The notes under the pieces are model-generated. The model had not been told where the DNA came from and did not search any database. It worked only from the letters and a program-made list of their open reading frames with translations. This document shows positions 1-62,266 of a DNA stretch of 64,000 nt, one piece after another. The DNA comes from a virus: positions 8,953-72,952 of the IMG/VR virus record IMGVR_UViG_3300025897_002116; one strand, 5' to 3'. Every line of letters begins with the position of its first letter. Positions within the stretch are counted from its first letter, which is position 1. A program made the translations under genes and the position numbers.

Positions 1-328
1 AACCCCACAACAAACTACTTCATTTTTCTACACATCATACATCTATTCATAGTACAATACAATCAATTCAATATATACATATATACTTACAATATAGTTC
101 ATACACTTCACCGTAAACAATCACCTTAACCTTCTTTCTCCCTTGATCTCTCTATGTCTGTCCATATATCGTATGTACCGGTGTACCTATGTTTGGTCAA
201 AGTCTATAATAACTCAGAGACGGGGTACGCCAGTACCTCCTCACCCTTTATCATCAGGTTTGGGAAGGCACGCCATTGTTGTTTGGTTGGTTGATAGGTT
301 GGCTTCATTTGAGACTTTAGTTGAAAAT

Positions 329-373
329 GCGCGTGGCACCTTCGGTGGAGAGATGAAAACCCCCTCCCCCTCA
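329..373. repeat. GC-rich hairpin element, copy 1 of 3
   Basis: gcgcgtg-g-cacc-TTC-ggtg-gagag...aaac-ccccctccccctca; same layout at 958 and 1634. Confidence 0.85.
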
Positions 374-416
374 TCATTCCTATCCTCCATCCAATCCCAT
401 TCCCTACCGGCATTGA

Positions 417-938
417 TCATAATACTGCATTACTATTAATCTGTCTATCAAAGCAAAATGTCTCATAATCTTTCTCATTAACCTTATACCCCCAATGCAA
501 TAAAGATTGCTGTATCCTTGGAGATATATTCCAATTGCCTTCATTATGTATCTTTGTATATATTCCTGTTCTCCATCTACCGTTGCTACCGCAGAACTCC
601 TGCCATCTCTGTATCTGTCTATTATCGTCTGAGTGCCTTCTTCCGTTATGGTACTTTGTATACCACTCAAACCAACCATATGGATCATCCTTATGCATCC
701 ATTTCATATCCCTCCAATAAGCATAGTTCATTCCACTTCTTATCTTGAACTTATTCATCTTAGGTTTGTATGTTTCTCCTAAGTATAAGCTTGTGTCTAC
801 GTTATCGTACGTTTCAAATAGAGTACTATACTCACAATCACCTTCTAGTTTTTCTATACCAAAATACGATCCTCCGAATATTCCTTCTCTAAGCATCTCA
901 CTTGGTGTCAATAAAGGGTTGAATTGTAATGTACTCAT
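417..938 (-). CDS. conserved hypothetical protein (TP.EML..G.FGG.YF / DPYGWFEWY / GRR..DD.RQI.RW family)
   Basis: 173 aa ORF with well-formed conserved-looking motifs; function not assignable. Confidence 0.7.
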   Translation of the reverse strand: MSTLQFNPLLTPSEMLREGIFGGSYFGIEKLEGDCEYSTLFETYDNVDTSLYLGETYKPKMNKFKIRSGMNYAYWRDMKWMHKDDPYGWFEWYTKYHNGRRHSDDNRQIQRWQEFCGSNGRWRTGIYTKIHNEGNWNISPRIQQSLLHWGYKVNEKDYETFCFDRQINSNAVL

Positions 939-957
939 ATGTAGTTTATGTTAATTT

Positions 958-1006
958 CGCGCGTGTCAACTTCGTTGACGGGAGAACAAACGCCCCCGCC
1001 CCCTCA
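958..1006. repeat. GC-rich hairpin element, copy 2 of 3
   Basis: cgcgcgt-gtcaac-TTC-gttgac-gggag...aaacgcccccgccccctca. Confidence 0.85.
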
Positions 1007-1028
1007 TCCTTATCCTTCTACTTAAAAA

Positions 1029-1247
1029 TTAGCGCTGTACGTTGCTAAAATAAGTCTTCAATGTATCCAATCTATCATCTGCATCTGTTAGCATCATTAA
1101 TGCATCTTCGGCATTTTTATAGAAATCATCTGTTGAATGATCTCCTATGCCGGCCGGATGATTAGATAAAAGATTTAATGTTAGTAGGGCCTTTGCTTTA
1201 TCTGCCTTTGCAGATGATTTTAACATAATGTATAGTTCTTCTTTCAT
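1029..1247 (-). CDS. hypothetical phage protein
   Basis: 72 aa ORF with a HPAGIGDHS motif. Confidence 0.7.
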   Translation of the reverse strand: MKEELYIMLKSSAKADKAKALLTLNLLSNHPAGIGDHSTDDFYKNAEDALMMLTDADDRLDTLKTYFSNVQR

Positions 1248-1258
1248 AGTTCTGAGGT

Positions 1259-1417
1259 TTAGCTTTTAGAAATATATTTGTAGTATCTGTATATCTCATC
1301 TTTGGTACCCATAATTTCAATCACCTCTGGAATTCCTTTCTCCTCTAATTCTCTGAGTAGATCTTTATCCGTAGCGTTCATAAAGTCAACTGTTACCTGC
1401 ATGAATATTTGTTTCAT
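1259..1417 (-). CDS. small hypothetical protein (52 aa, MKQIFMQVTVDF...)
   Basis: Translated manually; fills the gap and its ATG overlaps the upstream TGA (ATGA). Confidence 0.6.
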   Translation of the reverse strand: MKQIFMQVTVDFMNATDKDLLRELEEKGIPEVIEIMGTKDEIYRYYKYISKS

Positions 1418-1629
1418 TTTATCTTATATTTCTTCTTATATATATCAATGAATGCTTTTCCTACACCTACATCCAATATCTCCATTCCGGCTGGTATCTT
1501 CTTTGATCTCTCTGCAAGTATAGGATCTACATATCTTAGGTCCGTAAATACTTTAAGCCAAACTTTTCTACCGTTTGGTTTCTTGTATGTTACTGCTATC
1601 GGGATCTGTTCTTTTGGTATATATGTCAT
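1414..1629 (-). CDS. hypothetical phage protein
   Basis: Start revised to ATG at 1629 (MTYIPKEQ); the longer track start lies inside the hairpin element. Confidence 0.65.
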   Translation of the reverse strand: MTYIPKEQIPIAVTYKKPNGRKVWLKVFTDLRYVDPILAERSKKIPAGMEILDVGVGKAFIDIYKKKYKIK

Positions 1630-1633
1630 AATT

Positions 1634-1684
1634 CGCGCGTGACTCCTTCGGAGGAGAGAGGTTAAACGCACCCTCACCCCCTTA
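1634..1684. repeat. GC-rich hairpin element, copy 3 of 3
   Basis: cgcgcgtg-a-ctcc-TTC-ggag-gagag...aaacgcaccctcaccccctta. Confidence 0.85.
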
Positions 1685-1690
1685 GTTTAA

Positions 1691-2197
1691 TTATTCAAAT
1701 AAACTTAACTGTACTGTACGTATTTCAGGAACTATCTTATAAGCACTCAAAACCTTTCTAGTTGGTCTGAATGCTTCAATGCCCCAGTCAGCTAATTCTC
1801 CATCTATTACTGCTACTGCATGCTTTGCAACCGTCACTATATAGTTACCTTTAGGATGAGATTGAACAAAGCTTTTTAAAGTCTTCTTTCTCCATACAAA
1901 ATCACCGTTGAATTTATACCTATTCTTAGTCGACTTAGATCCTAATACCTCAACTTTAGCTTTCTTATCACCAAGCAGTATTCCTTTTGATTCAGCTTCT
2001 TCGAATTTACTATTAATAACTTTTTCTAAAGTTCCTTTTTTATCCTTCCTAGCGAAGGTCTCTTTTGCAACTTTATGTGCTATTGTATAATCTACTTCTC
2101 CTGCTATCGCTAATGCTCTCACAAAGCAATCATTTTTCTCTTTTGCAGCAAGAGGTGAACTAAATTCCGAGTAATTTTTTTGAATGTCTAAATACAT
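1691..2197 (-). CDS. phage protein with possible papain-like Cys-His-Asp triad and C-terminal QLSLF motif
   Basis: NDCFVRA, HAVAVIDG, DW motifs; ends VQLSLFE. Confidence 0.6.
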   Translation of the reverse strand: MYLDIQKNYSEFSSPLAAKEKNDCFVRALAIAGEVDYTIAHKVAKETFARKDKKGTLEKVINSKFEEAESKGILLGDKKAKVEVLGSKSTKNRYKFNGDFVWRKKTLKSFVQSHPKGNYIVTVAKHAVAVIDGELADWGIEAFRPTRKVLSAYKIVPEIRTVQLSLFE

Positions 2198-2258
2198 AAC
2201 CTTTTTTTTTATTTTAACTTATACCTAAATATACGAACTTTAATTGTAAAAAGCAACC
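2195..2258 (-). promoter_or_regulatory. repeated early promoter/leader cassette, copy 1
   Basis: Minus strand GTTGC-N-AAAGTTCGTATATTTAGGTATAAGTTAAAA...AAAGGTTATG; resembles the Bacteroidota TTG / TAnnTTTG promoter. Confidence 0.8.
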
Positions 2259-2260
2259 TT

Positions 2261-2644
2261 TTAGGCTACTTTATTTTCTACAAAAACTTTGTCTGCCCAA
2301 GTCTTAGCATTCACAGCTGAGTATTGGTGCTGATCATATAGGTTCGTGTTAAAGAATAGTTGATTGACTTCTCCTACAGTCACCTGAGCCATGAGCTCTT
2401 TATCCATAAAAACTATGGTTTTTCCTTTACGAGCAAATACTGTTAACCAGAACTCTGAACCTTCGGCTCTGAATTGAATAGTTTGCAAAGCTCCTTTCTT
2501 CCAATTACTTAACTTTGGCATGATAGTACCAACTTCGTAAGCTTTCATAAATCCAGCTTTTACTTTAACGATTGCTTGGTAAGTTCCTTTTTGACCTTTG
2601 ATGTAGTCTACTATGTTGATCGATGTTGTATTTCTAATTTCCAT
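2261..2644 (-). CDS. hypothetical early protein
   Basis: 127 aa ORF directly behind a promoter cassette. Confidence 0.75.
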   Translation of the reverse strand: MEIRNTTSINIVDYIKGQKGTYQAIVKVKAGFMKAYEVGTIMPKLSNWKKGALQTIQFRAEGSEFWLTVFARKGKTIVFMDKELMAQVTVGEVNQLFFNTNLYDQHQYSAVNAKTWADKVFVENKVA

Positions 2645-2708
2645 AACCTTTATTTTTATCTTTTTAACTTATACCTAAATATACGAACTTTAAGCCGGAA
2701 AGGCAACT
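2642..2708 (-). promoter_or_regulatory. repeated early promoter/leader cassette, copy 2
   Basis: Near-identical to the copies at 3787, 4234, 4735 and 5231. Confidence 0.85.
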
Positions 2709-2715
2709 TTTAACC

Positions 2716-2741
2716 AAAAAAAAACGGAAAGAATTCCGTTT
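2716..2741 (-). terminator. intrinsic terminator
   Basis: Minus strand AAACGGAA-loop-TTCCGTTT followed by a T run, downstream of the 2760..3011 ORF. Confidence 0.7.
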
Positions 2742-2759
2742 AATTTTAAAAACAAGGGG

Positions 2760-3011
2760 CTATGAAATCCTAGTATTTATTTGTTCTTTCTTAATTTCCA
2801 ATTGTATTACCAAGTCTTCATAAAAAAGACTAACAAGTTCATTTGTAAAAAAAGTATTACCTTTGGCAGTCAGCCAGGGAGGTGATAAATACATTCTTAT
2901 AAAATTATTGGCAAGCTTCTGAGAGGTTCCAATTTGCTCTAAAGTTAAACAGGAGTTTATTGCTCTCACTGTAAATTTGTAATTCTTAAGAATTTGTCTC
3001 TTTAGTTTCAT
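2760..3011 (-). CDS. hypothetical protein
   Basis: 83 aa ORF. Confidence 0.6.
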   Translation of the reverse strand: MKLKRQILKNYKFTVRAINSCLTLEQIGTSQKLANNFIRMYLSPPWLTAKGNTFFTNELVSLFYEDLVIQLEIKKEQINTRIS

Positions 3012-4316: not shown

Positions 4317-4412
4317 TTACCTACTATTAAACCACCAAATGAGTGTATGTACGATTATTGCCACTAGTAACCACCATTGTATTCTTCTTGATTCACGTTT
4401 CTGAGAGTTCAT
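4317..4412 (-). CDS. small membrane peptide (31 aa, MNSQKRESRRIQWWLLVAIIVHTLIWWFNSR)
   Basis: Manual translation; ATGA overlap with the upstream small ORF. Confidence 0.45.
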   Translation of the reverse strand: MNSQKRESRRIQWWLLVAIIVHTLIWWFNSR

Positions 4413-8546: not shown

Positions 8547-9128
8547 TTAAATTAAATTTATTTTTTCTAGTTTTTTTTTAATCCAAGAGGAATCATCAAA
8601 TGTTTTATCAGGATATCCAATTACCTCCTGTATCGCAGTAACTACACTAGGCCACTTTTTTTGATAATCGTGTCCGCCAATAGATCCACCTGGTTTTACT
8701 TTAGGGTAATACAATGTTAAATCTTGCTTTACTGATTCATATAAGTGATTGGCATCTATGTAAATAAAATCTATACTATTATCTTCAAACGTATCAACAA
8801 CATTATAACTATAATCTGATATTAAGGATATGTTATCGAAGTATCGTGTATTTATTTCGAATTGTTGTTTAACAAGTTCCCAAGAATAATCATGGTTCTC
8901 GTTAAATATCTCGTGCCCCTCATGTGGCTCTACTGTATAAATCTTATCAAATATTTGAGATGATGCAAATAACATCGTGGATTCTCCCATATAGGAACCT
9001 ATCTCAATCATAGTAGTGTTCTTGCCTTTTAGAGTTTTAAGTTCCGTTAGCATATCCACAAACCCAAAAAACATATTATTTGTATTACCTTTGAACCAAT
9101 GTGGTGTATGTAATCTTTGAGTATTCAT
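8547..9128 (-). CDS. class I SAM methyltransferase (Methyltransf_24-like)
   Basis: IEIGSYMGES, DFIYIDANH, KPGGSIGGHDY. Confidence 0.85.
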   Translation of the reverse strand: MNTQRLHTPHWFKGNTNNMFFGFVDMLTELKTLKGKNTTMIEIGSYMGESTMLFASSQIFDKIYTVEPHEGHEIFNENHDYSWELVKQQFEINTRYFDNISLISDYSYNVVDTFEDNSIDFIYIDANHLYESVKQDLTLYYPKVKPGGSIGGHDYQKKWPSVVTAIQEVIGYPDKTFDDSSWIKKKLEKINLI

Positions 9129-40226: not shown

Positions 40227-40727
40227 TTACAAGTTTTTATTATGAACTAAAATACCATTAGCAAAAAAATTACTATTGTCTTCTACATGAAAAATATAAG
40301 TCTGTACTGGTTCTCTCTCCTGTTCTTCTAAGTCTACAAGTTTTACATTCTCTAGTTCCAAATCAATTAAACTATCTCCTACTTTAAGTTGATTAATTTC
40401 GGAGGTAAAAGTGTATCTTGCTGATGTTAGGTTTGGTTTATAAGATGCTAGGTGTTTACCCTCAACATAGTATGGATGATCAAATGTAGAAATTATTTCA
40501 ATATCATTTTCTAATATCAATTTGATTAAGTCATTATGTATAGAGGTAGAAACTTCTATTACTTCTTTAACTTCTATTTCTTGAGTTTTTTCGTTATAAG
40601 AGAGAACAAAATCACCTATTCTAATGTCCTCTATGTACTTAGTATAGTAATCCTCCATGGTAACCTCTGTACCTGCTACAAAGCAAAGTTTATTGGACAT
40701 TTGTTTACTATTTAAAAATTTTTCCAT
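40227..40727 (-). CDS. stand-alone Hint (BIL/intein-like) domain protein; alternative start 40700
   Basis: CFVAGT...IEDIRIGD.V...ST.DHP...NFFANGILVHN. Confidence 0.9.
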   Translation of the reverse strand: MEKFLNSKQMSNKLCFVAGTEVTMEDYYTKYIEDIRIGDFVLSYNEKTQEIEVKEVIEVSTSIHNDLIKLILENDIEIISTFDHPYYVEGKHLASYKPNLTSARYTFTSEINQLKVGDSLIDLELENVKLVDLEEQEREPVQTYIFHVEDNSNFFANGILVHNKNL

Positions 40728-41952: not shown

Positions 41953-42473
41953 ATTAAACTTGTATCTAATTTTAATCGCGTTTTTGATATTCCTATTTGG
42001 AATATTTCAATATTATGTGGGAGTTCAATTACGAATTTTATAATATTAGAAACTTCTGAGAATTTTAGTTTTTGATTTTTTACTAACTTAGCACTCTCTA
42101 ATGTATTAGGGTATACATTTATAATACGAACTTCCTTTTCTATATCTCGTAATTCAAATGTTTTTTGTTCTAAATGTTTTTTATCCTCAATATACTTTTG
42201 ATTAGGGCCTCCAAATATTAATGCAGATGTTAGTATATTAATTATAGTTTTAGGTTTATATTTCCACTCTTTATAAACAAGTTCAAATAAATCAGATTGT
42301 AATTTATCTTTATATTCATTATTAATAAATACATCATACTCGTTTATCACATTTGAAAAGTAATGTGCATACGAATCAGTAGTACTTAGGGAATCAGCTT
42401 TATGACCATTTGAAGAGAGATGATCTTTTATATTCTTTCCCAATCCATAATTTCCTGTAACTAATATTTTCAT
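41949..42473 (-). CDS. short SDR/Rossmann-like protein
   Basis: ILVTG..GLG, DVFINN, IINI, Y...K. Confidence 0.75.
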   Translation of the reverse strand: MKILVTGNYGLGKNIKDHLSSNGHKADSLSTTDSYAHYFSNVINEYDVFINNEYKDKLQSDLFELVYKEWKYKPKTIINILTSALIFGGPNQKYIEDKKHLEQKTFELRDIEKEVRIINVYPNTLESAKLVKNQKLKFSEVSNIIKFVIELPHNIEIFQIGISKTRLKLDTSLI

Positions 42474-42485
42474 ACCATAAAGGTA

Positions 42486-42980
42486 TTACAGTAGTGGGTT
42501 TTTTAAATCTAAATGTTCGTAAAAGTAGAACCCGATTAAACTCCATCGATTTCCCTTAGTAACTTCTAAGACTTCGTGTTCTAATGAATGTTTAAAAGTG
42601 TAAAGGGAACCTGTATTTTTTGGTAGTATCTGGTATTTCGGTTGGTGTATAACAAAATCACCTCCTTCGTAATCTTCATTTAAAGAAGCTCCTATATTAT
42701 AAATCTGATTATCATAATAGATATCTCTATGTCTACCGAACTTGTCACCAACGGAATAGTTAAACATATGAATAGCATCTAAACTTTTAACAACTTTAAT
42801 TCCAGTTGTTTCAGTAAAGTAAGAATCCATTCTATCAAAAATCCACCGTATATATTGATTCCACCCAATAGAATAAAAATTATAACTAATAGGACGTGGG
42901 TATTCATTCCTCTCTGTCTTTTGTAACTTAGCCGAAAGTTTTATAATAGCATCACATTCTTGTTTATTAAATGAAATCAT
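42486..42980 (-). CDS. 2OG-Fe(II) oxygenase (prolyl-hydroxylase-like)
   Basis: F.K.EC, Y..GD.F..HRD, LNEDYEGG, HEV..VTKG.RWS. Confidence 0.88.
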   Translation of the reverse strand: MISFNKQECDAIIKLSAKLQKTERNEYPRPISYNFYSIGWNQYIRWIFDRMDSYFTETTGIKVVKSLDAIHMFNYSVGDKFGRHRDIYYDNQIYNIGASLNEDYEGGDFVIHQPKYQILPKNTGSLYTFKHSLEHEVLEVTKGNRWSLIGFYFYEHLDLKNPLL

Positions 42981-43131: not shown

Positions 43132-45450
43132 TTATTTATTGTGCACTAATATTCCGTTAGCGTAAAAATTTCTATTATCTTCAACGGAAAAAATATAAGT
43201 TTGAGTTGGTACAACTGGTAGTTCCGTTATACTCAAAATAGTAGTTTCAATATCACTATCTAATGTGTATACCGTATCACCAACTTTTATCTGAGAAACT
43301 TCTAACGGTAAGTCATATCTTTCGTTTGTTAACTTAGGAGCATACGATGCAAGTTCTAAATTATTTACATAGAATGGGTGGTCATGTGTAGATATAACTT
43401 CTGTTTGATTTGAAAAAGTATATTTAACCAAATCATCATGTACTGGTGATTCAGTATCTAATACATTCTTATCTTGATGTATTCCAGTTTTTTCATTATA
43501 CGTTAAGACTGTATCACCAACTACTACGTCTTCTATGTTTTTTTCATCTCCATTGGATAACATAATTGAAGTTCCTGCAATAAAACAATACCTATTATGT
43601 ACCAATACCTTATTTGCAAAAAAGTTATGATTTACTTCTACTGTCTTTACATTGTAAACAGCAGTTGGTTCTGTTAGTATTTCGGTTGATAATATTGTTA
43701 ATTCTGAACCATCTTGTTTAAATACTTTGAATCCTTCTTCTGCTTTTGTTGTAGTAAGATTGTATACACCTGTAGTGTAATCTGGGTCCATAGATACCCA
43801 TCCTTTTTCTTTTGAATATAATGGATGATCTAACGTTGATTCTATAATACTGTTATCTTCAAATGTGTATTTTACAGTTGTATTTACCAATTTGGATCCG
43901 ATTCCTTTAACTAAGTGCGGCTCTACTACATTAGTAGCAAAATTAAAAGACAAAACAGAATCTCCTATTTTAATATCTTCTACTAATTTATACTCGCCAT
44001 TTGCTAAGGTAATTTCAGTTCCTGCTACAAAACAAGGAGCGTTGTGTGATACGATGGCTTGAAAAGAAGTAGACCCACTTATGATATATGTATCAGTATC
44101 TTCAACATCTAACTCAACAATTTTCAAACCAGTATCGGATGTTACATAAAAGTTAACCTCGTCTATATCAATAATATTACCGTTTAAATCAAAGAAATAA
44201 TCATCATCCGGGTTTAGATATTGGGTAGGTTTATATGCTGTTTGATTTGAAGAAGAATTATAGACTAACCACTGTTTACCGGTGCCGGTGAATTTAGAAT
44301 CTGAATCGATTACAACTTCCATAAGTGCATTATAAGTTGAATCTCTTTCTACTTTAAATACAACTTGTGATGATGTTATGAATGATCCAGATGGTAATTC
44401 GTTACCTTCAAAATTCCAAGCTAGTAATGTGGAATCGGATTCAACTTGTGGTGAACCAGAAATAAAATACGATGATACAAAGTCTCCGACTTCCGTATCT
44501 CCTATTTCGGTGAAAGTACCGTCTACCATTTGTATTTTATGAGTAGACAATATACCAGATGATCCTGCTTTTATAAAGTTTGTAGCAAACTCATAATAAT
44601 GAATATCTGATAGCTTATTAATGTACCTTGTTGTGTCCACTTCAGATGATATGTCAGCAGGTAATTCAAATATAGAACTTATCTTATAACTATGTAGTGT
44701 TACTACACTTAAATCACTCCCATACACTATTTGAAAAGATCTTACAGATGTTATGTGGCCATTATCATCGGTATTAGACGTATTATAGTGATATTGGAGG
44801 ATTAATTTATCATCTCCTTTAATTTCCTCTACAAATGAATTCCATCTATCTTCGTTTGACTCATTTTCTACTGTAGAACCTATTTTATAGAAACTAATAG
44901 GGTTATATACTTCGGTTATATCCTTTATAGCAACATCTGGAATATTAGATGGGTTAATAGTTGATTCTAGTGTATTTGTAATTGAATCAGATCCAGAGTA
45001 ATAATGTGAAACTACAAAACTACCGCTATCAGTTGAATCACTTGAATCAAATAAACTAAGTAGCTCTAATGTGCTTTTACAGTATACACTATCAAATAAA
45101 GCAGATTCATCATATGCTAACCTTAATATAAATTTATCATCTGAATCTTCTATACTTTCTGGGTATATTGTGTTTAAATCCTCTGGATGTAGAACTATAT
45201 TATCAGCAAGTGATGGAATACTTGTGGTTATAGCAGTAGATATCGCAGAAACTATCTCATTGTGAAAAACTGGTTTGTAAGTAATATGTAACTCAGCTAT
45301 GTCATTTGTAGTAAGGATTTCAGCAAATTCAGTAAAATTAAAATTTGACAATTCATTACCGACTATACTAGTATCTGTGTTTATTTCTAATAACCTAAGA
45401 TTTCCATTACTGTCTTTTGCAAAATCTGCAGAAAAAAATGTGCCTTTCAT
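43132..45450 (-). CDS. circularly permuted ATP-grasp-like domain fused to three tandem Hint domains
   Basis: N-terminal SADF...LLEINTD, later PDVAIK, LILQY, VRS; three Hint units each ending HN (aa ~299-470, 473-619, 622-771). Confidence 0.8.
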   Translation of the reverse strand: MKGTFFSADFAKDSNGNLRLLEINTDTSIVGNELSNFNFTEFAEILTTNDIAELHITYKPVFHNEIVSAISTAITTSIPSLADNIVLHPEDLNTIYPESIEDSDDKFILRLAYDESALFDSVYCKSTLELLSLFDSSDSTDSGSFVVSHYYSGSDSITNTLESTINPSNIPDVAIKDITEVYNPISFYKIGSTVENESNEDRWNSFVEEIKGDDKLILQYHYNTSNTDDNGHITSVRSFQIVYGSDLSVVTLHSYKISSIFELPADISSEVDTTRYINKLSDIHYYEFATNFIKAGSSGILSTHKIQMVDGTFTEIGDTEVGDFVSSYFISGSPQVESDSTLLAWNFEGNELPSGSFITSSQVVFKVERDSTYNALMEVVIDSDSKFTGTGKQWLVYNSSSNQTAYKPTQYLNPDDDYFFDLNGNIIDIDEVNFYVTSDTGLKIVELDVEDTDTYIISGSTSFQAIVSHNAPCFVAGTEITLANGEYKLVEDIKIGDSVLSFNFATNVVEPHLVKGIGSKLVNTTVKYTFEDNSIIESTLDHPLYSKEKGWVSMDPDYTTGVYNLTTTKAEEGFKVFKQDGSELTILSTEILTEPTAVYNVKTVEVNHNFFANKVLVHNRYCFIAGTSIMLSNGDEKNIEDVVVGDTVLTYNEKTGIHQDKNVLDTESPVHDDLVKYTFSNQTEVISTHDHPFYVNNLELASYAPKLTNERYDLPLEVSQIKVGDTVYTLDSDIETTILSITELPVVPTQTYIFSVEDNRNFYANGILVHNK

Positions 45451-45622: not shown

Positions 45623-45790
45623 TTATTTGTTTTCCTCTACGGAAGCGGCACGGTAAGCTGTAATCAACTTTTTTATTTCACCTGCGAATTTGCGAGCTCT
45701 CTGTTGAGACGCTTTAGTAGTGCCGGAATTGTTTTCTGCTAATCCGTTAAAATTAGACTGTATTTCTTCAAATAACTCTTGTTTGTTCAT
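45623..45790 (-). CDS. histone H1-like Hc1 family small protein (55 aa)
   Basis: Manual translation contains TKASQQRARKFAGEIKKLITAYRAASV, matching the KAA..RARK...E..K....R..S pattern. Confidence 0.7.
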   Translation of the reverse strand: MNKQELFEEIQSNFNGLAENNSGTTKASQQRARKFAGEIKKLITAYRAASVEENK

Positions 45791-52682: not shown

Positions 52683-53591
52683 TTACTGTCTTAAAGTTTT
52701 GGCAATTCTGAACTCTGGTGAAGTAAAGAATTCTGGTATCAGCATTGAATGCGTTGCTCTAATTGGATTAATATCAATTCCTCCTCTACGGGTGTATAAA
52801 CAAGATACCATTAACTGCTCAGGTTGAAAAGCATCATATAGGTGTCTAAATATCATTTCACATATTTCTTCATGAAAATGTGATACAGTTCTATGAGAAA
52901 CTATATATTTAGCGATTGATCCGGATGATGGTATTTTCTTTCCTATAATTTTTATGTAAACATCTCCCCAATCCGGTTGATTTGTAACTCTACAGTTTGA
53001 TCGAAGTAAATTTGAGGATAATTTTATTTCACTTGATTCTTCAGCAACTTCTTCTACTGTTAGTTGAGAAGCATCGGATTGAAAAGCGGTAAAGTCTATT
53101 TGATCTAAATCTGTTGCATCTTTTAAATCTACGTACCCTTCAAAAGAAAGCGGGTGACCATCATCATTAGATGTATAAAAAGAAACAGTTGTATCAGTTT
53201 CTAATAATTCATCTAGATCCCTTTTGACTCTTGCTTCAATTCCAGAAATACAATCTGATGCGGTCTTGCCGATTTTAGTCATATTAAGTGAATTCAAGTA
53301 AAGTTTAATTGACTTAGACTCTACGTGATTATATGAATCAGCAGGGCAAACTATTTTAAGCATTCCGGCTACGGGTTGACCTTTTTCGGTTATTGCTGAG
53401 ACTTCATATGCATTCCAGGTATCTACCCCAACGAACTCTTCTCCGGTTAAGCTATATGCTTCTCGATTAAGGTATCGAGGAATTTTCACTAATAGGGATG
53501 CATCGTATTGATCTGAGTAACCATCACCGCCTACTTTACCTAAATGTCTGTTTGCTAGACTTACTACTTCTTCTTGATTCTTATCTGCCAT
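52683..53591 (-). CDS. queF: NADPH-dependent preQ0 reductase (bimodular QueF)
   Basis: D.WNAYEVS, VESKS.KLYLNS, LLRSNCRVTNQPDWG, FHEE.CE, YTRRGG.DINP. Confidence 0.93.
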   Translation of the reverse strand: MADKNQEEVVSLANRHLGKVGGDGYSDQYDASLLVKIPRYLNREAYSLTGEEFVGVDTWNAYEVSAITEKGQPVAGMLKIVCPADSYNHVESKSIKLYLNSLNMTKIGKTASDCISGIEARVKRDLDELLETDTTVSFYTSNDDGHPLSFEGYVDLKDATDLDQIDFTAFQSDASQLTVEEVAEESSEIKLSSNLLRSNCRVTNQPDWGDVYIKIIGKKIPSSGSIAKYIVSHRTVSHFHEEICEMIFRHLYDAFQPEQLMVSCLYTRRGGIDINPIRATHSMLIPEFFTSPEFRIAKTLRQ

Positions 53592-53595
53592 AATT

Positions 53596-54114
53596 TTATT
53601 TAATAAATTCCAATATTTGCTCTACTCTTTGCATAGGAGAACCAGTAACTTTTATCATATTACTGTTTATACTAGCTAATTGATTTCTAAATTCTTTATC
53701 TATATCTCTTCTCCACTCTTCATTAATACTCCTAACTCCATCATCAACTGATTTGAACTCTATAGGAAAGTAAACATAATGTGAATATTCATTTTTAATT
53801 CTTGACCAAGTATCATCAACAAACGCTACGGTTGCAGCGCTTGCTTTATTCATATACTTAGTATATACTACTAAATCCATATAACATCGATCTAACACAC
53901 AGTTATACGGTTTAAGTAATGCTTCTAAATGAAAACTAGAGATTGCTAATTGAGTTTCCGAAGTTCCTTGTTCATTAATAGGAAACCCAAACTCTTTGAC
54001 CGTACGAGTAGATTCATTTATAAACTCGTATTTAGGTAATTTACTTTTCAGTAATTCATATACTGTAGTCTTACCGGTACTGCTTGCTCCTATTAATGCT
54101 ATTTTCTTTACCAT
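53596..54114 (-). CDS. P-loop nucleotide kinase (AAA_28/NadR-like)
   Basis: GASSTGKTT, LDRC..D, DDGVR; start revised to MVKKIALIG. Confidence 0.75.
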   Translation of the reverse strand: MVKKIALIGASSTGKTTVYELLKSKLPKYEFINESTRTVKEFGFPINEQGTSETQLAISSFHLEALLKPYNCVLDRCYMDLVVYTKYMNKASAATVAFVDDTWSRIKNEYSHYVYFPIEFKSVDDGVRSINEEWRRDIDKEFRNQLASINSNMIKVTGSPMQRVEQILEFIK

Positions 54115-54665
54115 GTAACCTTTTTTAAAAACATAACCCACATACTTAAACTCGTATCTCTAAATTTAAGGAATAATTCTTCAATTTCCAACTCTTCAGC
54201 ATTAAATTTTCCAGTTGCTATAACTCCTCCTTCGTCTACTCCTTTAGTTACCCTATGTAGTACACAACCTGCTTGTTTGTAATTACCTCGGTAAGCTCTT
54301 ATTTGAGGATCTTTACCTTTAAGTTCTGGATACTCGGTTATAAGTCCTGGATGACCATTAATTATCTTGTATTTTTCACAGAGCTCAGGAGGAATCACTC
54401 TTAACCAACCATGTAGAGTTATAATTGGATTATCAAACTTACTTAAAAATCTTTCATAATCCTCAACAGTAGGTTTATTAGGGGTATAGCGTACAATACC
54501 TTTATTATTAGCCCAGGAAAGTATCTGCTTATTTATTTTCCTCAAATTTTCAGGTCTCTCATTAGTAATTATTCTATCAGGCAGTCTTCCTAATTTTTCT
54601 ACTAAATCTACTATTTCGGTACCTGTTTGACTAAAAAATACAATCCAGGGTTTATTCTTATTCAT
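54108..54665 (-). CDS. PurN-like formyltransferase (putative preQ1 formyltransferase, DpdN-like)
   Basis: FSQTG.E, LHGWLRVIP, INGHPG, GKDPQ, GCVLH.V...VDEG. Confidence 0.8.
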   Translation of the reverse strand: MNKNKPWIVFFSQTGTEIVDLVEKLGRLPDRIITNERPENLRKINKQILSWANNKGIVRYTPNKPTVEDYERFLSKFDNPIITLHGWLRVIPPELCEKYKIINGHPGLITEYPELKGKDPQIRAYRGNYKQAGCVLHRVTKGVDEGGVIATGKFNAEELEIEELFLKFRDTSLSMWVMFLKKVTW

Positions 54666-55449
54666 TCCAAAACTTTCTAAACTTTTTTATATTTACTTTT
54701 ATTAACTCATTACTTATCTCCGCTAAAGGAGTATTGATTAATGTGAATAGCTTTTGAGATTCCTTACTCCATAATCCCGTTTCTCCGTACTTAATATTCT
54801 TAATAGCATGTACTACAGGGTTAGATGTATCCATTGAATAGATCCATGGATAGTTTCTATAGTACATTCCTTCTTGGGGTAATGAACATCCTAATAGGTG
54901 ATGAGGTTTATTCTCGTTCAATATCCCATCTTTTAATAAGTCCCCTAATAGTTTTACTCTGCCGAGCATCCAACTAACATACTTATTTGGATGAGGAACA
55001 GACTTACTATAGTAGGAATAATCGAAAGAGATTGCAATCATATCTACGTTAGTAGATTTATCCATGTACTTGTAACAATCGCAGATTTCTTTATAGGATT
55101 TTCCTTGTACAACTCCTATACTTTTGCCTGGAACATCATCGTGCTCTTTATACCATTTCTCTGCTTGTCGCATAGTCTTTTCTGCGTTCTCTAATGCATC
55201 AGGAATAATGTACCATTCCGGACGTAATTTTTTTACCCATTTAGCAAAACTATCAGCATCAAAAGCTTCTTCCAATTCAAAGATAGAATTATCTAAAATA
55301 ACTTCTCTACCTTTTCTTAAAGCTTCTTTAAACTGATCTAGATATTCTTTATCTTCCTCAAGTAGGTGTACTAATGCGTACGAGTAATCTGTAACTTTAT
55401 TTACTTCGTCGAAAAGACTCTTAGGGCTCTCATGTGCTATTCGGATCAT
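54658..55449 (-). CDS. TGT-fold deazaguanine transglycosylase (DpdA-like, probably DpdA3 type)
   Basis: LDNS.FE, IIPD, GVVQG, HHLLG, SMDTS; adjacent to queF and near folE. Confidence 0.75.
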   Translation of the reverse strand: MIRIAHESPKSLFDEVNKVTDYSYALVHLLEEDKEYLDQFKEALRKGREVILDNSIFELEEAFDADSFAKWVKKLRPEWYIIPDALENAEKTMRQAEKWYKEHDDVPGKSIGVVQGKSYKEICDCYKYMDKSTNVDMIAISFDYSYYSKSVPHPNKYVSWMLGRVKLLGDLLKDGILNENKPHHLLGCSLPQEGMYYRNYPWIYSMDTSNPVVHAIKNIKYGETGLWSKESQKLFTLINTPLAEISNELIKVNIKKFRKFWNE

Positions 55450-55522
55450 CTAGTTTCTTTATTTTATTAACCCAGTACTGTAAACCTGGGCTTGTTATAT
55501 TCTTTAATATACGTGTGCTATT

Positions 55523-55717
55523 TTAATCATTTAAAATTTCTACAGTTTTATTAATATCTGTCATAGCATTATTCATAATCTCCATAGCTTGGTCTAATTT
55601 AGCCTGATAGCCTTTAAAGTCAGCTGCTTGTTCTACAGCTTGTTTAGCTACTGAGTAAGGTATTACATCTATGCCTAGGTTCTTAACATATATTTTATGT
55701 TCGTCTAAATTTATCAT
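55523..55717 (-). CDS. hypothetical protein
   Basis: 64 aa ORF. Confidence 0.6.
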   Translation of the reverse strand: MINLDEHKIYVKNLGIDVIPYSVAKQAVEQAADFKGYQAKLDQAMEIMNNAMTDINKTVEILND

Positions 55718-56238
55718 TAGAAAAATTGTTTTAAGTTAGGTCTAAAATAATTAATAGATTTCATTACTTTTTTATCTCTTGATCGATAAACGATATACCT
55801 TCCATTCGCAATTTTCTCAAAATGACAGGCCTCACCTTGTTCCTTACTTCTAGTGCTGACAGTAAGTATGGCTTCTGCTTCAGAAATACAAGCTTTTGAT
55901 AGATTGCTCGCTTGCACTTCTTGATAAGCCGGCCATATCTTATCCTTAAGGCCGTGTAACATAACACCGTTCCCAAGGGAAACGTAAGTAATATCACAAA
56001 GAGCATCCAAAACTTCCACGATGTTTCCATCTTCGCAAGCTTGTTTATATTCCTCAAGTTCCTCGAGGATAAAATTGTAGACGAATTCCCATTCCTCTCT
56101 TTTCGGTATTGTTGGTTCATAGTTATTTGGTTTTCCAAAAGTAGCATTAAAAATTTCTACTTCATCTACAAAAGGTACCCCATTAACCCATACAGGTAAT
56201 TCTTCTTCTTCTTTGAATAATGATAATTGTTCACCCAT
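55717..56238 (-). CDS. MazG/PRA-PH-like nucleotide pyrophosphohydrolase
   Basis: EELEEY...EVLDALCDITYV, EV..SNLSK, K..K; N-terminal QLSLF. Confidence 0.85.
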   Translation of the reverse strand: MGEQLSLFKEEEELPVWVNGVPFVDEVEIFNATFGKPNNYEPTIPKREEWEFVYNFILEELEEYKQACEDGNIVEVLDALCDITYVSLGNGVMLHGLKDKIWPAYQEVQASNLSKACISEAEAILTVSTRSKEQGEACHFEKIANGRYIVYRSRDKKVMKSINYFRPNLKQFF

Positions 56239-56239
56239 T

Positions 56240-56440
56240 CTAGTATACTTTAATAATTCTAGATTCTGTTAAGCTAATAATCTTAAAGTTAGTCTCACTA
56301 AGCTCTTCTAACATTTTATATGTCTTAGTTTCTGCTTCAGTTCCTGACATTGCGTCTACTAGGTAGATCTCTTTTACTTTCTGAATTCTGCCTCTATCGT
56401 TTTCTTTTTCAAACTGTGCTGTTACTTGCCAATAATTCAT
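56240..56440 (-). CDS. DUF4494-like protein
   Basis: KVKEIYLVDAMS.TEAE. Confidence 0.7.
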   Translation of the reverse strand: MNYWQVTAQFEKENDRGRIQKVKEIYLVDAMSGTEAETKTYKMLEELSETNFKIISLTESRIIKVY

Positions 56441-56454
56441 AATTTTATATACTT

Positions 56455-56808
56455 TTAGGTTCTATTATAATCATCTTCTAATCTCACTATATCAGTCTCT
56501 TCAAAAGAAGTACCTGTTTGTACTTCAATAAAAGTTACAGGTGCATCTGTTTTGTTCCAAGCCCTGTGTTTAGCTTCTACCGGAATTTCTAATGTATCTC
56601 CTGACGTTAATAAATGGTCTACCCCGTTGAGTATAACATTAAGTCTTCCTTTTACTACCGTCCAACTCTCGGAACGTTCTGTATGAAACTGGTACGATAG
56701 TCTTTGTCCAGGATCTATAGTTAATTCTTTAACTTTACAGAACGGGGTCCTGAGTATTACTTCAAAATACCCCCAGGGTCTTTCTTCAAAATCTATTAAT
56801 GTATACAT
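56455..56808 (-). CDS. cupin, mannose-6-phosphate isomerase type II C-terminal-like
   Basis: RPWG.F, PGQRLSYQFH..RSESW, HR..N, EVQTG...E.DIVRLEDDY. Confidence 0.85.
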   Translation of the reverse strand: MYTLIDFEERPWGYFEVILRTPFCKVKELTIDPGQRLSYQFHTERSESWTVVKGRLNVILNGVDHLLTSGDTLEIPVEAKHRAWNKTDAPVTFIEVQTGTSFEETDIVRLEDDYNRT

Positions 56809-57497
56809 CTACCTGCTAATTCTATGTTTTTATAAAACTCAGCTCTTGCTGAATCTTCGTCTAGGAAGCAACCAGATAATTTAGCTGTTTGCATCGAAGC
56901 ACCATTATGTTTAATACCTCTACAACTAACACAATTATGTGTAGCTGAGATCATTACAGCAACCCCTAGGTTACCTTCACAAATTTTATTAACTGCATTG
57001 TGAATTGCAACTGTAAGTTGTTCTTGAATTGCTCCTCTTCTACCAAAGTGCTCTACAATCCTGTTTAGCTTAGATAACCCAACTACCTTGCCATCATTTG
57101 AGGGGATATAAGCTATGCTTACTTTTCCTCCAATAGTCTGGTGATGGTGACTACACATTGAAGTGACTGGGATAAGGCTTTCTTGAACTATACCGTCATA
57201 CCCGTCGGAAGGAAAGGTAGTAATTTCGGTCATAGGTTCAAATCTACCCTTCCATAAGTCGTTTACGTATGCTTTCGCAACTCTTCTAGGAGTATCAGAT
57301 GAATTAGGATCATTTTTCCAATCACATCCCAGGGCAGTTAAAAACTTTCCGAATGCTTTTGCAGCGTTCTTTATAATCTCTTCTTTTTCTGCGGTGCTCA
57401 ACACACCCATTTTTCCTTTGGCAGCTAACTGCGAAGATACACCGTTGGCGTAACCTTCTTTAACTAGTTCGGTACCTTCTATAAACTTTTTTGACAT
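56796..57497 (-). CDS. folE: GTP cyclohydrolase I
   Basis: DTPRRVAK, SMCSHH, VVGLSKLNR, QEQLT, H.CVSCRG, RAEF. Confidence 0.95.
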   Translation of the reverse strand: MSKKFIEGTELVKEGYANGVSSQLAAKGKMGVLSTAEKEEIIKNAAKAFGKFLTALGCDWKNDPNSSDTPRRVAKAYVNDLWKGRFEPMTEITTFPSDGYDGIVQESLIPVTSMCSHHHQTIGGKVSIAYIPSNDGKVVGLSKLNRIVEHFGRRGAIQEQLTVAIHNAVNKICEGNLGVAVMISATHNCVSCRGIKHNGASMQTAKLSGCFLDEDSARAEFYKNIELAGRCIH

Positions 57498-59530: not shown

Positions 59531-62266
59531 TTAAAAGTTATAACGTAAACTTGCGTTCCAAGTTCTACCAAATCCAAACCATACTGAGTTTCTTACATCA
59601 ACGCCTTCCCAGGTTACAGAAGTATCATCAGCGTGAATATTTGAGTTAGATTCTGCAATATATGTTGTATTGAGTAAATTGTTAATATTTGCTCTTACAG
59701 TCCATCCTTTACCAATTTTTCCAGTTATACCAAAATCAACTAAACCAAAAGAAGGTAATTTAAGTGCTCCATTGTTATCAGGGTTAGTAAACTCTGAGTC
59801 AGTAATAGAATAATCAGCATACAGCCCATCGACAAATCTATAATCTAAATCTAGTGATAAGTGTTTTCCAATTTTTTGATCTACTCCTATATTACTAGTA
59901 AATTGTGCGGCATCTCCTACTTTAGCATCTTTTAGGTAAAGTGTACCCGTTCCAATTGATTCTTGATTTTCATCAAATAGTTCTGAAGTAAAATCTTTAG
60001 TATATCTCCAATCACCGATTGATAACATACCTGTAAATCTAGTAGAACTAGATAACTGATATTTACCTTCAAATTCTATACCATTGTGTCTTACATCAAT
60101 ATCTTTAAATTGAGCTGATCCATCTACACCAAATTGGTTAGATAAAGAACGAGTAACAAATCTATTACCCCAAGTTGTAGAATATGCATTAACTTTAAAT
60201 GATAAATCTTTACCAATAAAACCATACCCTAATTCAATAGATTTAATTTCCTCATTTTGTAAATCAGGATTAATATCATTTATATAATTAGGAAATACAG
60301 CACCAAATTGAGGTTGACGTGAAATATACCCTGTATTAAAGAATACATTTTGTTTTGCATCAATGTTGAAGTTAGCACCTCCTTTAATATAACCACCACG
60401 TTGGTTTTGTACCTCTGATTCTGGGTTATCTGGTACGTCAAAGTAGTCAATTCTTTGAAATGCTTGATTTGAAAGTCCAGATTGTACTACGGCTGTTAGT
60501 TTATCACCACCATATTCAAACATAGAGTTTACACCAGTCCATCCAACTTTACCTACATTATGATAATCAATCTTAGGTCCATCTAAACCGGTACTACCAA
60601 ACGGACTAGCCGCAACAGTTGTGTTGATTATTTGACCATTAGAGTTCTTATTACCTGTTGAGTAGTACCCATCTAATCCCATAAGATTGTTTAGTACTCT
60701 ATAATGCTGACCTGTATATTTTCTTAAATCAATACCAATAGATGCTTTAACTTTACCAAACTGTCCTTCTAAGTTAGAAATACCACCAACCCAATTATGT
60801 GAGTTCATTGATGCTCTTCTAATAAGTACTTCTCTGTTAACACTTGAATCTCTAAATCCGTTTGAACCAATTAAGAGTCCTGAGAAAGCTGAAATATCAC
60901 CAGTATAACCACTAGTGGTTGATTGGTTATGTGCAACAATAGCATCAAAATTAATTGAACCGTCTGGATTTCTTGAACCTCTACCATTTTCTGAGTAATG
61001 CTCAGTAAGGTCTATTCGATATGGAAGTATATCAGAATCAGATGCTCTATAATTGGCTCCTCTTGGACCTGTTCCTCCACCTCTACCAGCTGAACCATAT
61101 AATGATGTGGCTAATTTAAGCTTAGAATTAATTTTATAATCCCAGTTAAAAGTTGCTAATGGTTTATTATAGAAGTTTCTTCTCATTGAGAATTCTTCTC
61201 CATTTAGTGTACCTCCGTTTGAGTTCCATCTAGTATCAATTCCTTCATCACCGAAATTTTGGTAATCTCTAATAGAAACCCATACATCTCTTTGATGGTG
61301 CCATTGACCTGCTCCTAAGAATGAAAAGTTTAACTCATGTTTAGAACCTTCTGGTGCATATCCAATAGCAGTGAAATAATTAAATCCTTCTCCTGAGGTA
61401 TTATTGATATACCCATTACCGCTCCATTTAGATAGAAGTACAGATGTTGCCCATCCACTTTCGCTCTTACCGGAATTGTAAGAAGCTACAGTCTTTGAGT
61501 ACCCATTATTACCCACCATTTGTGAGATTGAGCCTCCTTTTTCTTTATCAACAGCTTTAGTAAAAATGGAAATAGTTCCTCCAACTGAAGGGACTGCCAA
61601 TTTAGTTGCTCCCAATCCTCTCTGAATTTGAATACCACTAGCAACATCAGTTAAACCTTGCCAATTACTCCAATACAGTCTACCATTTTCCATATCGTTA
61701 ACTGGTTGTCCGTTAATTAAGATAGAAGTATTAGTTTGATCAAATCCTCTTAAAGATATTCTTGAATCACCATAACCACCGCCTTGCTTAGTAGCATAGA
61801 CACCAGGTACTTTATTCATAATTTCAGGAAATTCCTGATTTCCACCTTTAAGTTGGATATCTTTTGAAGATATTGATGATACGGCAATAGGGGTTTTTCT
61901 TCCTACAGCAATATCAATTACTCCTGAGGTAACTACTACAGCATTTAATTCTGCAATATTTACTTCCATGGTAACATCTACAATTGATCTAGCTCCGATT
62001 ACAACCTCTTGTTTGTTATAACCTACAGCACTAAAAACAAGAGTGCTTCCAACTTCTGGTATATTTAAATCAAAAACACCATTGAAATCTGCAATAGTTC
62101 CAATATTGGTATCCTTAATTACTATACTTACCCCAGGTATACCTTCGTTATTTTCGTCTACCACTTTGCCGGATACAGTACGTTCTTGTGCGTTTACAAT
62201 TAGAAACAGAAAACTTAGGGAAATAGTCCACAGAAGTCTTGTTCCTGATTTTAAATAATTTTTCAT
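59531..62266 (-). CDS. TonB-dependent outer-membrane receptor (Bacteroidota type)
   Basis: Signal peptide, VSGKVVD...GIPGVSI N-domain, plug (PGVY, ISLRG, LINGQPVND, QIQRG, GGTI), barrel ending GRTWNASLRYNF. Confidence 0.93.
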   Translation of the reverse strand: MKNYLKSGTRLLWTISLSFLFLIVNAQERTVSGKVVDENNEGIPGVSIVIKDTNIGTIADFNGVFDLNIPEVGSTLVFSAVGYNKQEVVIGARSIVDVTMEVNIAELNAVVVTSGVIDIAVGRKTPIAVSSISSKDIQLKGGNQEFPEIMNKVPGVYATKQGGGYGDSRISLRGFDQTNTSILINGQPVNDMENGRLYWSNWQGLTDVASGIQIQRGLGATKLAVPSVGGTISIFTKAVDKEKGGSISQMVGNNGYSKTVASYNSGKSESGWATSVLLSKWSGNGYINNTSGEGFNYFTAIGYAPEGSKHELNFSFLGAGQWHHQRDVWVSIRDYQNFGDEGIDTRWNSNGGTLNGEEFSMRRNFYNKPLATFNWDYKINSKLKLATSLYGSAGRGGGTGPRGANYRASDSDILPYRIDLTEHYSENGRGSRNPDGSINFDAIVAHNQSTTSGYTGDISAFSGLLIGSNGFRDSSVNREVLIRRASMNSHNWVGGISNLEGQFGKVKASIGIDLRKYTGQHYRVLNNLMGLDGYYSTGNKNSNGQIINTTVAASPFGSTGLDGPKIDYHNVGKVGWTGVNSMFEYGGDKLTAVVQSGLSNQAFQRIDYFDVPDNPESEVQNQRGGYIKGGANFNIDAKQNVFFNTGYISRQPQFGAVFPNYINDINPDLQNEEIKSIELGYGFIGKDLSFKVNAYSTTWGNRFVTRSLSNQFGVDGSAQFKDIDVRHNGIEFEGKYQLSSSTRFTGMLSIGDWRYTKDFTSELFDENQESIGTGTLYLKDAKVGDAAQFTSNIGVDQKIGKHLSLDLDYRFVDGLYADYSITDSEFTNPDNNGALKLPSFGLVDFGITGKIGKGWTVRANINNLLNTTYIAESNSNIHADDTSVTWEGVDVRNSVWFGFGRTWNASLRYNF

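Follow-up and report, generated by a model that had tools for sequence, protein, structure and literature searches.

Hairpin-plus-box signals are known from phage lambda, whose nut site combines boxA with boxB, and from the put site of HK022; boxB is a stem of 5 base pairs (bp) with a GNRA-like pentaloop, and the arginine-rich N protein is the associated factor. To our knowledge, no nut- or put-type system has been reported for Bacteroidota hosts. Small hairpins also form in DNA, d(GCGAAGC) being a DNA mini-hairpin. In the RfaH/ops system, a small hairpin of the non-template strand is read within a bubble of 10–11 nucleotides (nt), and this tiny structure, together with a flanking pause sequence, leads to read-through of downstream terminators, according to the part of PMC5995543 devoted to it. 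The early promoters of phage N4 are hairpins of 5–7 bp with a 3-nt G-N-A loop and a closing C-G pair, situated on the template strand of the genes they serve, as outlined in PMC4496689. A role is unknown for the T5-type nick sites in the sections of PMC3517423 that treat them.

Here we describe an element of about 55 nt that is present in three copies (E1, E2 and E3) near the beginning of a 64,000-nt stretch of viral DNA, hereafter the window, which corresponds to bases 8,953–72,952 of the 72,952-nt contig IMGVR_UViG_3300025897_002116 (completeness rating 44%). The window has a G+C content of about 32%, and its open reading frames (ORFs) lie essentially all on the minus strand. Its closest cultured relative is the 160-kb Flavobacterium myophage vB_FspM_immuto (immuto in what follows), with which it shares 68% identity in the DNA polymerase. 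Sequence comparison places the three copies in one conserved element of immuto-like Flavobacteriia myophages. What is established is the element itself, with the covarying hairpin and the strand on which it lies, how many copies there are and where they are located; it is a new and well-supported family that fits the definition of no family tested, and by analogy it would work like known hairpin-plus-box signals.

The core of the element, GCGCGTG followed 5 nt later by TTC, matches the plus strand of the window exactly three times, at 329–343, 959–973 and 1635–1649, and was found in none of 100 dinucleotide-preserving shuffles of the window. A preliminary description of this DNA had reported three such copies with stems of different sequence, which our counts bear out; its first position, 329, is correct, whereas the other two, 958 and 1634, include the C that precedes the heptamer. 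Counted on both strands, GCGCGTG alone occurs at the same three places only (shuffle mean 0.21), and the whole 72,952-nt contig holds the same three exact matches plus one with 1 mismatch, which lacks the rest of the element. On the plus strand the stem arms are cacc/ggtg at 337–340 and 344–347, gtcaac/gttgac at 965–970 and 974–979, and ctcc/ggag at 1643–1646 and 1650–1653, each stem being followed by a GAGAG-type tract, AAAC and C-tracts. Read on the coding (minus) strand, all copies run from a G-run through (CG)TTT, a CTCYC tract and a stem with a C-GAA-G loop to CACGCGC and an A/T-rich stretch. The mini-hairpin measures 11–15 nt (a 4–6-bp stem, the GAA loop and the C-G closing pair), and the linear boxes around it are conserved, GGGGGCG..CTCTCC on the 5′ side and CACGCGC-R-AATT on the 3′ side. 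E1 (321–374, minus strand; 68.8 bits and E = 1.4e-11 with the covariance model introduced below) reads, on the coding strand, G-run, TTTT, CTCTCC, CACC, GAA, GGTG and CCACGCGC. E2 (951–1004, minus strand; 59.5 bits) has the 6-bp stem GTCAAC-GAA-GTTGAC and sits between the stop codon of an ORF of 72 amino acids (aa; 1029–1247) and the start of the gene orf173 at 938. E3 (1627–1680, minus strand; 53.9 bits), with the stem CTCC-GAA-GGAG, begins about 10 nt past the stop codon of orf168 (1691–2197), and the ATG of the next ORF (1629) comes 5 nt after CACGCGCG. The minus-strand ATGs proposed earlier at 938 and 1629 are plausible starts; the one at 308 fails, as it is out of frame inside a real ORF (244–420).

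More than 70 AT-rich contigs of viral origin carry this same element of about 55 nt. With the TTC loop fixed, IMG/VR was scanned with two patterns, and the second gave at least 102 distinct matches; among the matches listed, 73 are in AT-rich loci and 29 in GC-rich loci. A stem of at least 4 contiguous Watson-Crick pairs is present in 70 of the 73 AT-rich matches listed (two of the three exceptions have T.G on the coding strand) and in only 1 of the 29 GC-rich ones, which serve as an internal chance control. Because these two patterns had fixed the loop, a third scan left it unspecified and fixed only GGGGGCG and CACGCGCRAATT. It yielded 71 loci with 35 distinct cores, two of which look like chance matches while 33 carry the other features of the element. 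The C-GAA-G hairpin stands in the same register in 31 of the 33 real cores, so that the triloop described earlier as fixed is very nearly that; of the other two, one reads TGGC-TTT-GCCA and one is degenerate. Immuto itself has two copies (record positions 42,443–42,496 and 64,752–64,796), one with an identical CACC stem and one a degenerate, stemless copy upstream of its orf173 homologue.

A covariance model built from 31 copies was used to align 73 copies, which reduce to 48 distinct rows; the set used for covariation had been chosen without reference to the hairpin. In the 48-row alignment, 186 of 186 stem cells pair, and both-sided changes affect three of the four pairs (46 cells). The covariation score is 0.559, as against 0.145 ± 0.024 for shuffles, none of which reached the real score in 500 attempts, and at most 0.112 for slid controls. 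Little or no variation was seen in the closing C-G pair, the loop and CACGCGC. This pattern of substitutions indicates that the hairpin is maintained by compensatory change, as the preliminary description had supposed. Formation of the hairpin requires a single strand. The folding energies of the elements are ordinary (Z-scores of −2.0 to +0.4 as RNA and −0.9 to +0.1 as DNA); sequence statistics and the comparison among phages rule out chance, and it is from comparison and not from thermodynamics that the hairpin draws its support. The sole wobble pair in the stem alignment is U.G on the coding strand, A.C was not seen, and T.G is likewise on the coding strand in the loci L243 and L199. A further helix, GCGU/ACGC, closing around the element was rejected: it is missing in at least 9 copies and its covariation is uninformative, CACGCGC never varying and the helix therefore lying beyond such a test.

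Searches of wider collections returned little. Nothing relevant was found in Rfam at E values up to 10 (window positions 1–3000) or up to 1 (4.4 kb around the elements), and nothing in the whole window reached a gathering score. When 185,579 prokaryotic species genomes were searched with the commonest variant, 26 matches were obtained, 25 of which are chance matches in records of 54–71% GC without the rest of the element. The single real copy, L285, has 37% GC, is located on a contig of an uncultured metagenome-assembled genome and is probably phage DNA; with only 1 of 26 matches being real, a host motif was rejected. At the level of titles, the literature on intergenic hairpins of Flavobacterium phages, on immuto and on GCGCGTG hairpins of phages contained no description of the element.

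With the covariance model we counted 3 copies in the contig of the window (a 73-kb fragment), 2 in immuto (160 kb), and 2, 3 and 1 in the related genomes G001 (173 kb), G002 (168 kb) and G003 (139 kb); the search of contig and relatives that had been suggested at the outset returned homologues in all of these relatives. In its low number (1–3 copies per genome) the element is like nut or ops sites and unlike a general promoter. Every copy points in the direction of the genes: in 49 of the 73 AT-rich copies listed, a sense ORF of 100 aa or more lies within 800 nt, as against an antisense one in only 5. The G-run begins 0–40 nt past the stop codon of the upstream ORF in 48 of the 66 listed copies that have such an ORF. 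In 34 of 67 listed copies the following start codon lies no more than 60 nt on, behind an A/T-rich spacer without a promoter-like word; a hairpin plus T-run terminator follows 32–66 nt after the element in 9 of 67 listed copies under a strict rule or 13 of 73 under a lenient one, and precedes it in only 1 of 67. The remaining copies are followed by a long non-coding stretch. Three positions recur, namely after an Hc1-type gene, upstream of orf173 (E2) and downstream of orf173 (E1). In relatives the element lies at the end of the groES-groEL-hc1 operon, ahead of the operon's terminator, and a copy after hc1 is present in immuto, G001, G002 and G003; the window has its own 55-aa Hc1-type histone-like gene (45623–45790, minus strand) directly after groES-groEL, without an element after it. 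The elements had also been placed near a genome end, which is not supported, as the window starts 8,952 nt into a contig of 44% completeness, and in the complete relative G002 the initial 25 nt of the record reappear at 165,250, so its map is terminally redundant or circular.

At two of the loci (L185 and L166), about 40–240 nt past the terminator that follows the element, we also observed a promoter-like word, about 130 nt of conserved sequence and a strong terminator. This stretch, for which Rfam gave no match, may be a phage small-RNA gene.

We tentatively propose, with less than even confidence, that the element is a signal for the control of transcription elongation or of 3′ ends at the ends of gene blocks, read in the nascent RNA or in the non-template DNA. 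It would be a strand-specific cis-acting signal, read from the coding strand in single-stranded form during transcription of the region, and would mark the ends of transcription units or gene blocks. A protein would bind it, and the outcome would be pausing of RNA polymerase, read-through of terminators (antitermination) or formation of a 3′ end. The wobble pair, the orientation shared with the genes and the location within transcription units are our grounds for assigning the hairpin to the coding strand during transcription. The low copy number, the frozen synonymous sites of the E1-type ORFs and, in G002, the location of the E1-type copy and the following non-coding region at the border of two gene blocks (both described below) also speak for the proposal. 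As in lambda nut and HK022 put, a linear box is followed by a small hairpin with a purine loop, the element would be transcribed, it stands just upstream of terminators at block borders, and there are 1–3 copies per phage genome. Unlike in lambda nut, the loop is a triloop instead of the pentaloop of boxB, the boxes are unrelated in sequence, and one copy (E1) lies within a translated ORF. With ops, as portrayed in PMC5995543, the element shares being a short, orientation-specific signal inside transcription units with few copies per genome, and its minimal hairpin of 11 nt compares with the quoted bubble of 10–11 nt; its position and strand fit a non-template signal within a transcription unit. 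Nevertheless, its sequence is unrelated to GGCGGTAGNNTG, its stem has 4–6 bp as opposed to the single physiological pair given for ops, and it is found at 3′ ends or between genes, whereas ops is placed in operon leaders in the same account. The DNA version of the proposal would explain both the DNA-type C-GAA-G mini-hairpin, whose 11-nt minimum equals the size of the bubble, and the tolerance of a translated context.

Several observations weigh against this proposal. No paralogue of NusG or RfaH was found in the phage genomes searched (NGN domain of NusG in 0 of 5, with a control positive in 11 of 14), and an N-like trans-acting protein was not identified, no search having been aimed at one. 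None of the three window copies has a terminator directly downstream, and the cases of an element followed by a terminator are mostly one orthologous locus, the one after hc1, so few independent events stand behind the association; moreover, many of the 73 listed copies come from closely related phages. The minimum-energy RNA folds of E1 and E3 bypass the 4-bp hairpin, which is weak as RNA, and E1, inside a translated ORF, is oddly placed for an RNA site of the nut kind. The C-GAA-G motif is of the DNA mini-hairpin type and would suit DNA signals without a link to transcription equally well. Metatranscriptome data are thin, with two runs contributing 4 and 3 contigs, unstranded and of depth 2–6, on a 12-kb stretch; one of these contigs spans window positions 997–1256 and breaks off at the E2 G-run, a weak hint at best.

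Of the alternatives, the one that survives best, though we rate it as somewhat unlikely, is a single-stranded DNA signal unrelated to transcription, in which a phage nickase, primase or origin protein would recognise the heptamer together with the d(C-GAA-G) hairpin of the coding strand. This could produce a localised single-strand interruption like those of T5, provide a dedicated site for priming or contribute to a replication origin; if forks travel in the direction of the genes, the coding strand would be the template of the lagging strand. The loop and its closing pair belong to the C-GNA-G class, the stable DNA hairpin of N4 as presented in PMC4496689, the stems have just 4–6 bp and RNA folds do not favour the hairpin, and coding and non-coding contexts are tolerated equally. 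In addition, the invariant template-strand heptamer, GCGCGTG, agrees with the T5 major-nick consensus R/GCGCRGG at 6 of 7 positions, and the sites described in PMC3517423 for T5, tf and phiKMV-like phages are similarly few, confined to one strand and provided with a GC-rich core. The base that precedes GCGC is a pyrimidine here and not the purine of T5, and the sections of PMC3517423 on the known sites describe no covarying hairpin for them. The E1-type copies adjoin a conserved non-coding region of 330–400 nt, which follows the E1-type small ORF in several phages, contains blocks such as GTCTGAG.. and GACTTTGAYCAA and a TATATA-rich stretch, and in immuto is flanked by two ACGGGT repeat arrays with a spacing of about 11 nt. 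In the window this region begins at positions 1–240 (minus strand, from an alignment of 9 loci) and continues at 8760–8952 of the contig; it is also present at 4400–5010 of L005. The region, to which Rfam assigned no match, may be an origin or a non-coding RNA. In G002 the detrended cumulative GC skew reaches its global maximum at 44 kb and is lowest at about 149 kb; the maximum coincides with the E1-type copy and the non-coding region that follows it, at the border between a replication and metabolism block and a structural block, the sharpest compositional switch of that genome. However, such a signal gives no reason for a position upstream of terminators or right after stop codons, and the other copies (after hc1, E2 and E3) have no adjoining AT-rich region. 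Nor was a nickase that could be linked to it found, the Y1 (HUH) transposase domain Y1_Tnp and the reverse transcriptase domain RVT_1 each being absent from the 5 genomes searched, with controls positive in 6 and 3 cases, respectively. A last point against it is the chemistry of immuto virion DNA, in which all deoxyguanosine (dG) is replaced by a formylated preQ1 derivative (fdPreQ1), a 7-deazaguanine derivative, in the portion of the report that covers it (bioRxiv 10.1101/2023.04.13.536721).

The DNA of the window phage is probably fully modified as well, given this replacement in immuto and a 7-deazaguanine gene set at 52683–57497 of the window (minus strand; a QueF-like gene, FolE, a PF00551 formyltransferase and others). 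It is conceivable, if doubtful, that the element is a structural landmark read as DNA, that is, a C-GAA-G mini-hairpin on the non-template strand in which the guanines are probably all a 7-deazaguanine derivative, serving either for ops-like recruitment of an antitermination factor or as a T5-like site of nicking or priming. Formation of a G-quadruplex or of a primer at the G-run was also entertained and rejected, by comparison with primer formation at the mitochondrial conserved sequence block II (CSB II). Many copies have one G5 run only, and a DNA G-quadruplex is excluded because immuto virion DNA, in the account available, lacks normal G.

Another kind of signal at the level of the mRNA appears unlikely to us, although it draws on the same positional evidence as the elongation or 3′-end signal that we propose. 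The element could determine processing or stability or be the site of a translational repressor in 3′ untranslated regions and intercistronic spacers or, together with the terminator, form the body of a small RNA derived from the 3′ untranslated region. Element and terminator together would be an RNA of about 100 nt in which two hairpins are joined by a conserved single-stranded linker, CACGCGCRAAUUU, and the continuation is variable, being a terminator, a second covarying hairpin in the E1-type copies (CATTT/AAATG, CATAT/ATATG, CGGAT/ATCCG or CGAAT/ATTCG) or a start codon 15–30 nt on. The G-run of the coding strand can pair with the CUCUCC tract, but through G.U pairs only, and this helix is without convincing covariation. 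The hairpin is weak as RNA, E1 is translated through, and no processed ends were seen in the very thin, unstranded RNA data.

The preliminary description had considered a second class of promoter modelled on N4. We find a promoter improbable, whether as an N4-like hairpin or as a bipartite sequence (GGGGGCG, 14–17 nt, CGAA) for a phage-directed host RNA polymerase firing downstream; the wider options of that description, a leader-like RNA or a signal in single-stranded DNA, correspond to the two readings that we rate highest. The description correctly noted the absence of the usual promoter cassette from the genes that follow the elements: a promoter-like cassette, TATACCTAAATATACGAA, is found on the plus strand at 2220, 2670, 3815, 4262, 4763 and 5259, ahead of each small gene (12 matches of this type in all, versus 0.24 expected), and sites resembling it occur from 2220 on and not within 1–2200. 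The genes after E2 and E3 therefore have no standard cassette, and the elements are spaced like cassettes. The start codon within 60 nt in 34 of 67 listed copies, behind an A/T-rich leader, would also suit a promoter, as would the distance of 14–17 nt between GGGGGCG and CGAA in the copies inspected (counted by hand). With N4 promoters, in the form given in PMC4496689, the element shares the short hairpin (5–7 bp there, 4–6 bp here), the G-N-A loop closed by C-G, conserved flanking bases with a stem that is free in sequence while pairing is kept, and three clustered copies. The differences from N4 are that the G-N-A loop belongs to the coding rather than the template strand and that the elements precede terminators or lie in an ORF. 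The caveat on the strand attached to the original proposal applies to all three window copies and to the related ones, and an N4 geometry would therefore fire against all genes; in that geometry the CTCTC tract would template a GGAGAG start, though again against the genes. N4 relies on a giant T7-like virion polymerase in the same source, and none was found in the relatives searched. PF00940, which covers polymerases of the T7/N4 type, matched 0 of 5 related genomes with an equally silent control, and none of the 118 ORFs with 140 aa or more in G002, a complete relative, matched a polymerase or sigma PHROG; the one unmatched protein of 2,231 aa in that genome is fibre-like and has no DxDxD motif. 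The search for a phage RNA polymerase gene that had been recommended was thus negative in these genomes, and an N4-type promoter is unsupported.

Terminators 32–66 nt on, in 9–13 listed loci, would leave a transcript of only about 40 nt and therefore count against a promoter at these loci, E1 is within an ORF that starts upstream of it, and a double-stranded promoter leaves the compensatory changes in the stem unexplained. Moreover, 1–3 copies per 160-kb genome are too few for a sigma factor that serves a block of genes, and together with the compensatory changes this makes a sigma-dependent promoter class a poor fit. The contig and its relatives do encode a protein of 234 aa with weak similarity to sigma region 2, a candidate phage sigma factor located outside the window at G000:C1:3829–4533 (minus strand), about 4.7 kb away on the contig. 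It scored 12–20.6 bits with Sigma70_r2, below the cut-off, and E ~2e-4 with SigI models, and among its 6,462 homologues of equal length is one that its source calls a 'specialized sigma subunit'. We also noted three classes of intergenic words in G002, TTCGTATATTTA, TTCTTATATT and CTATTTATA; words such as the last are better candidates for a role as sigma-dependent promoters.

The ORF around E1 (244–420, minus strand; 59 aa) runs through the element, and its ATG overlaps the TGA of orf173 (ATGA). Counterparts in relatives have 59–77 aa and the form GWGFD..EGAF.LSPPKVPRAFSTNVSN..EEWCxYGGxPSPKAYM. Their EEWCxYGGxPSPKAYM tail shows TCN/AGY serine switches and third-position changes, and since it evolves like coding sequence we take the small ORF to be real. 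Synonymous sites within the element are frozen in the E1-type ORFs (always CCG/ACG, AAG and CGC), so a constraint at the nucleotide level holds even in coding sequence. Coding as a general explanation (frame PPKVPRA) was rejected, an upstream in-frame ATG being present in only 17 of 73 listed copies and several having in-frame stops; it is valid for the E1-type ORF only.

The neighbouring gene orf173 (417–938, minus strand) encodes a conserved phage protein, with E2 upstream and E1 downstream. Ten related loci comprise 4 unsplit ones (3 distinct) and 2 that are split with an E1-type element after the gene. The unsplit homologues (L300, L301/302 and L309) have 184–187 aa including the EEWC..AYM tail and carry no element; because these distant loci are unsplit, about 200 nt with a stop codon, a new start and the element part orf173 from its tail in the lineage of the window. 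The protein has no Pfam or PHROG match, its 242 homologues bear no functional name (only hypothetical or uncharacterised), and its AlphaFold model (predicted local distance difference test, pLDDT, of 81) had no match in searches of the PDB with Foldseek (best E 8.9) or VIA-align (best Z 2.6). In view of this lack of a domain, a named homologue or a structural match, orf173 was rejected as a reader of the element or an enzyme acting on it.

The presence of the element also differs among relatives, as at hc1, where the window lacks a copy that immuto, G001, G002 and G003 have, and in T4-type phages promoter/stem-loop (PeSL) cassettes have been proposed to spread or exchange between intergenic sites. 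A recombination or mobile cassette without a function of its own, a short repeat exchanged among intergenic sites and shuffling the small genes nearby, would agree with this, with the unsplit, element-free orf173 homologues, with the direct copies that flank orf173 in the window, G002 and L303, and with an element far better conserved than the proteins around it (68% for the DNA polymerase against immuto). We consider it very improbable, as copies at the same position in different phages are more alike than copies within a genome: E1 matches the E1-type copies of G002 and L148, while the stems of E1, E2 and E3 all differ. Since likeness follows position and not genome, the copies are old residents under selection. 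Target-site duplications, terminal inverted repeats and a transposase were not seen (Y1 in 0 of 5 genomes), and selfish spread leaves the fixed loop and boxes unexplained.

Two mobile-element hairpins can be dismissed: an IS200/IS605- or repetitive extragenic palindromic (REP)-type hairpin, with no Y1 transposase in 5 genomes, and a target site of a diversity-generating retroelement. The latter resembles the element, in the description given by PMC3240598, in having a GC-rich stretch and then a DNA hairpin just past the 3′ end of a gene, with a free stem and a sequence-dependent, purine-rich loop on the sense strand, but its stem has 7–10 bp with a 4-nt GRNA loop, unlike the 4–6 bp and triloop found here, and it depends on a reverse transcriptase and a template repeat, whereas no RVT_1 domain was found in the 5 genomes. 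Where GCGCGTG appears in the examined text of that paper, it is part of a primer only.

Besides the genes mentioned above, the window encodes a family-A DNA polymerase, GroES and GroEL, thymidylate synthase, many sugar-modifying enzymes and the 7-deazaguanine pathway, and a tRNA scan of it returned zero tRNA genes. A 911-aa ORF (59531–62266, minus strand) with CarboxypepD_reg, Plug and TonB-dependent-receptor barrel domains resembles an outer-membrane protein of the SusC/TonB-receptor kind. A helicase-like ORF of 772 aa (43132–45450, minus strand) contains two Hint/intein regions, and a stand-alone Hint domain is encoded by an ORF of 166 aa (40230–40727, minus strand).

Myophages of the immuto type that infect Flavobacteriia are common in marine and estuarine metagenomes, and the 8-kb stretch around the elements was matched in runs from 18 studies. 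We know of almost nothing on how transcription is organised in these phages, with their 160-kb genome and genes nearly all in one direction, or in Bacteroidota phages generally. A structured signal of low copy number and defined strand at the borders of gene blocks offers a concrete handle on this organisation, and a cultured system is at hand in immuto on Flavobacterium sp. LMO8. The element family can also be used in libraries of RNA and DNA motifs for the annotation of such phages. If the hairpin is read as DNA, it would add to the small set of regulatory DNA secondary structures; as a structural landmark it would be the first of its kind apart from N4 and RfaH, a DNA signal that depends on a hairpin and is carried by an abundant group of marine phages.

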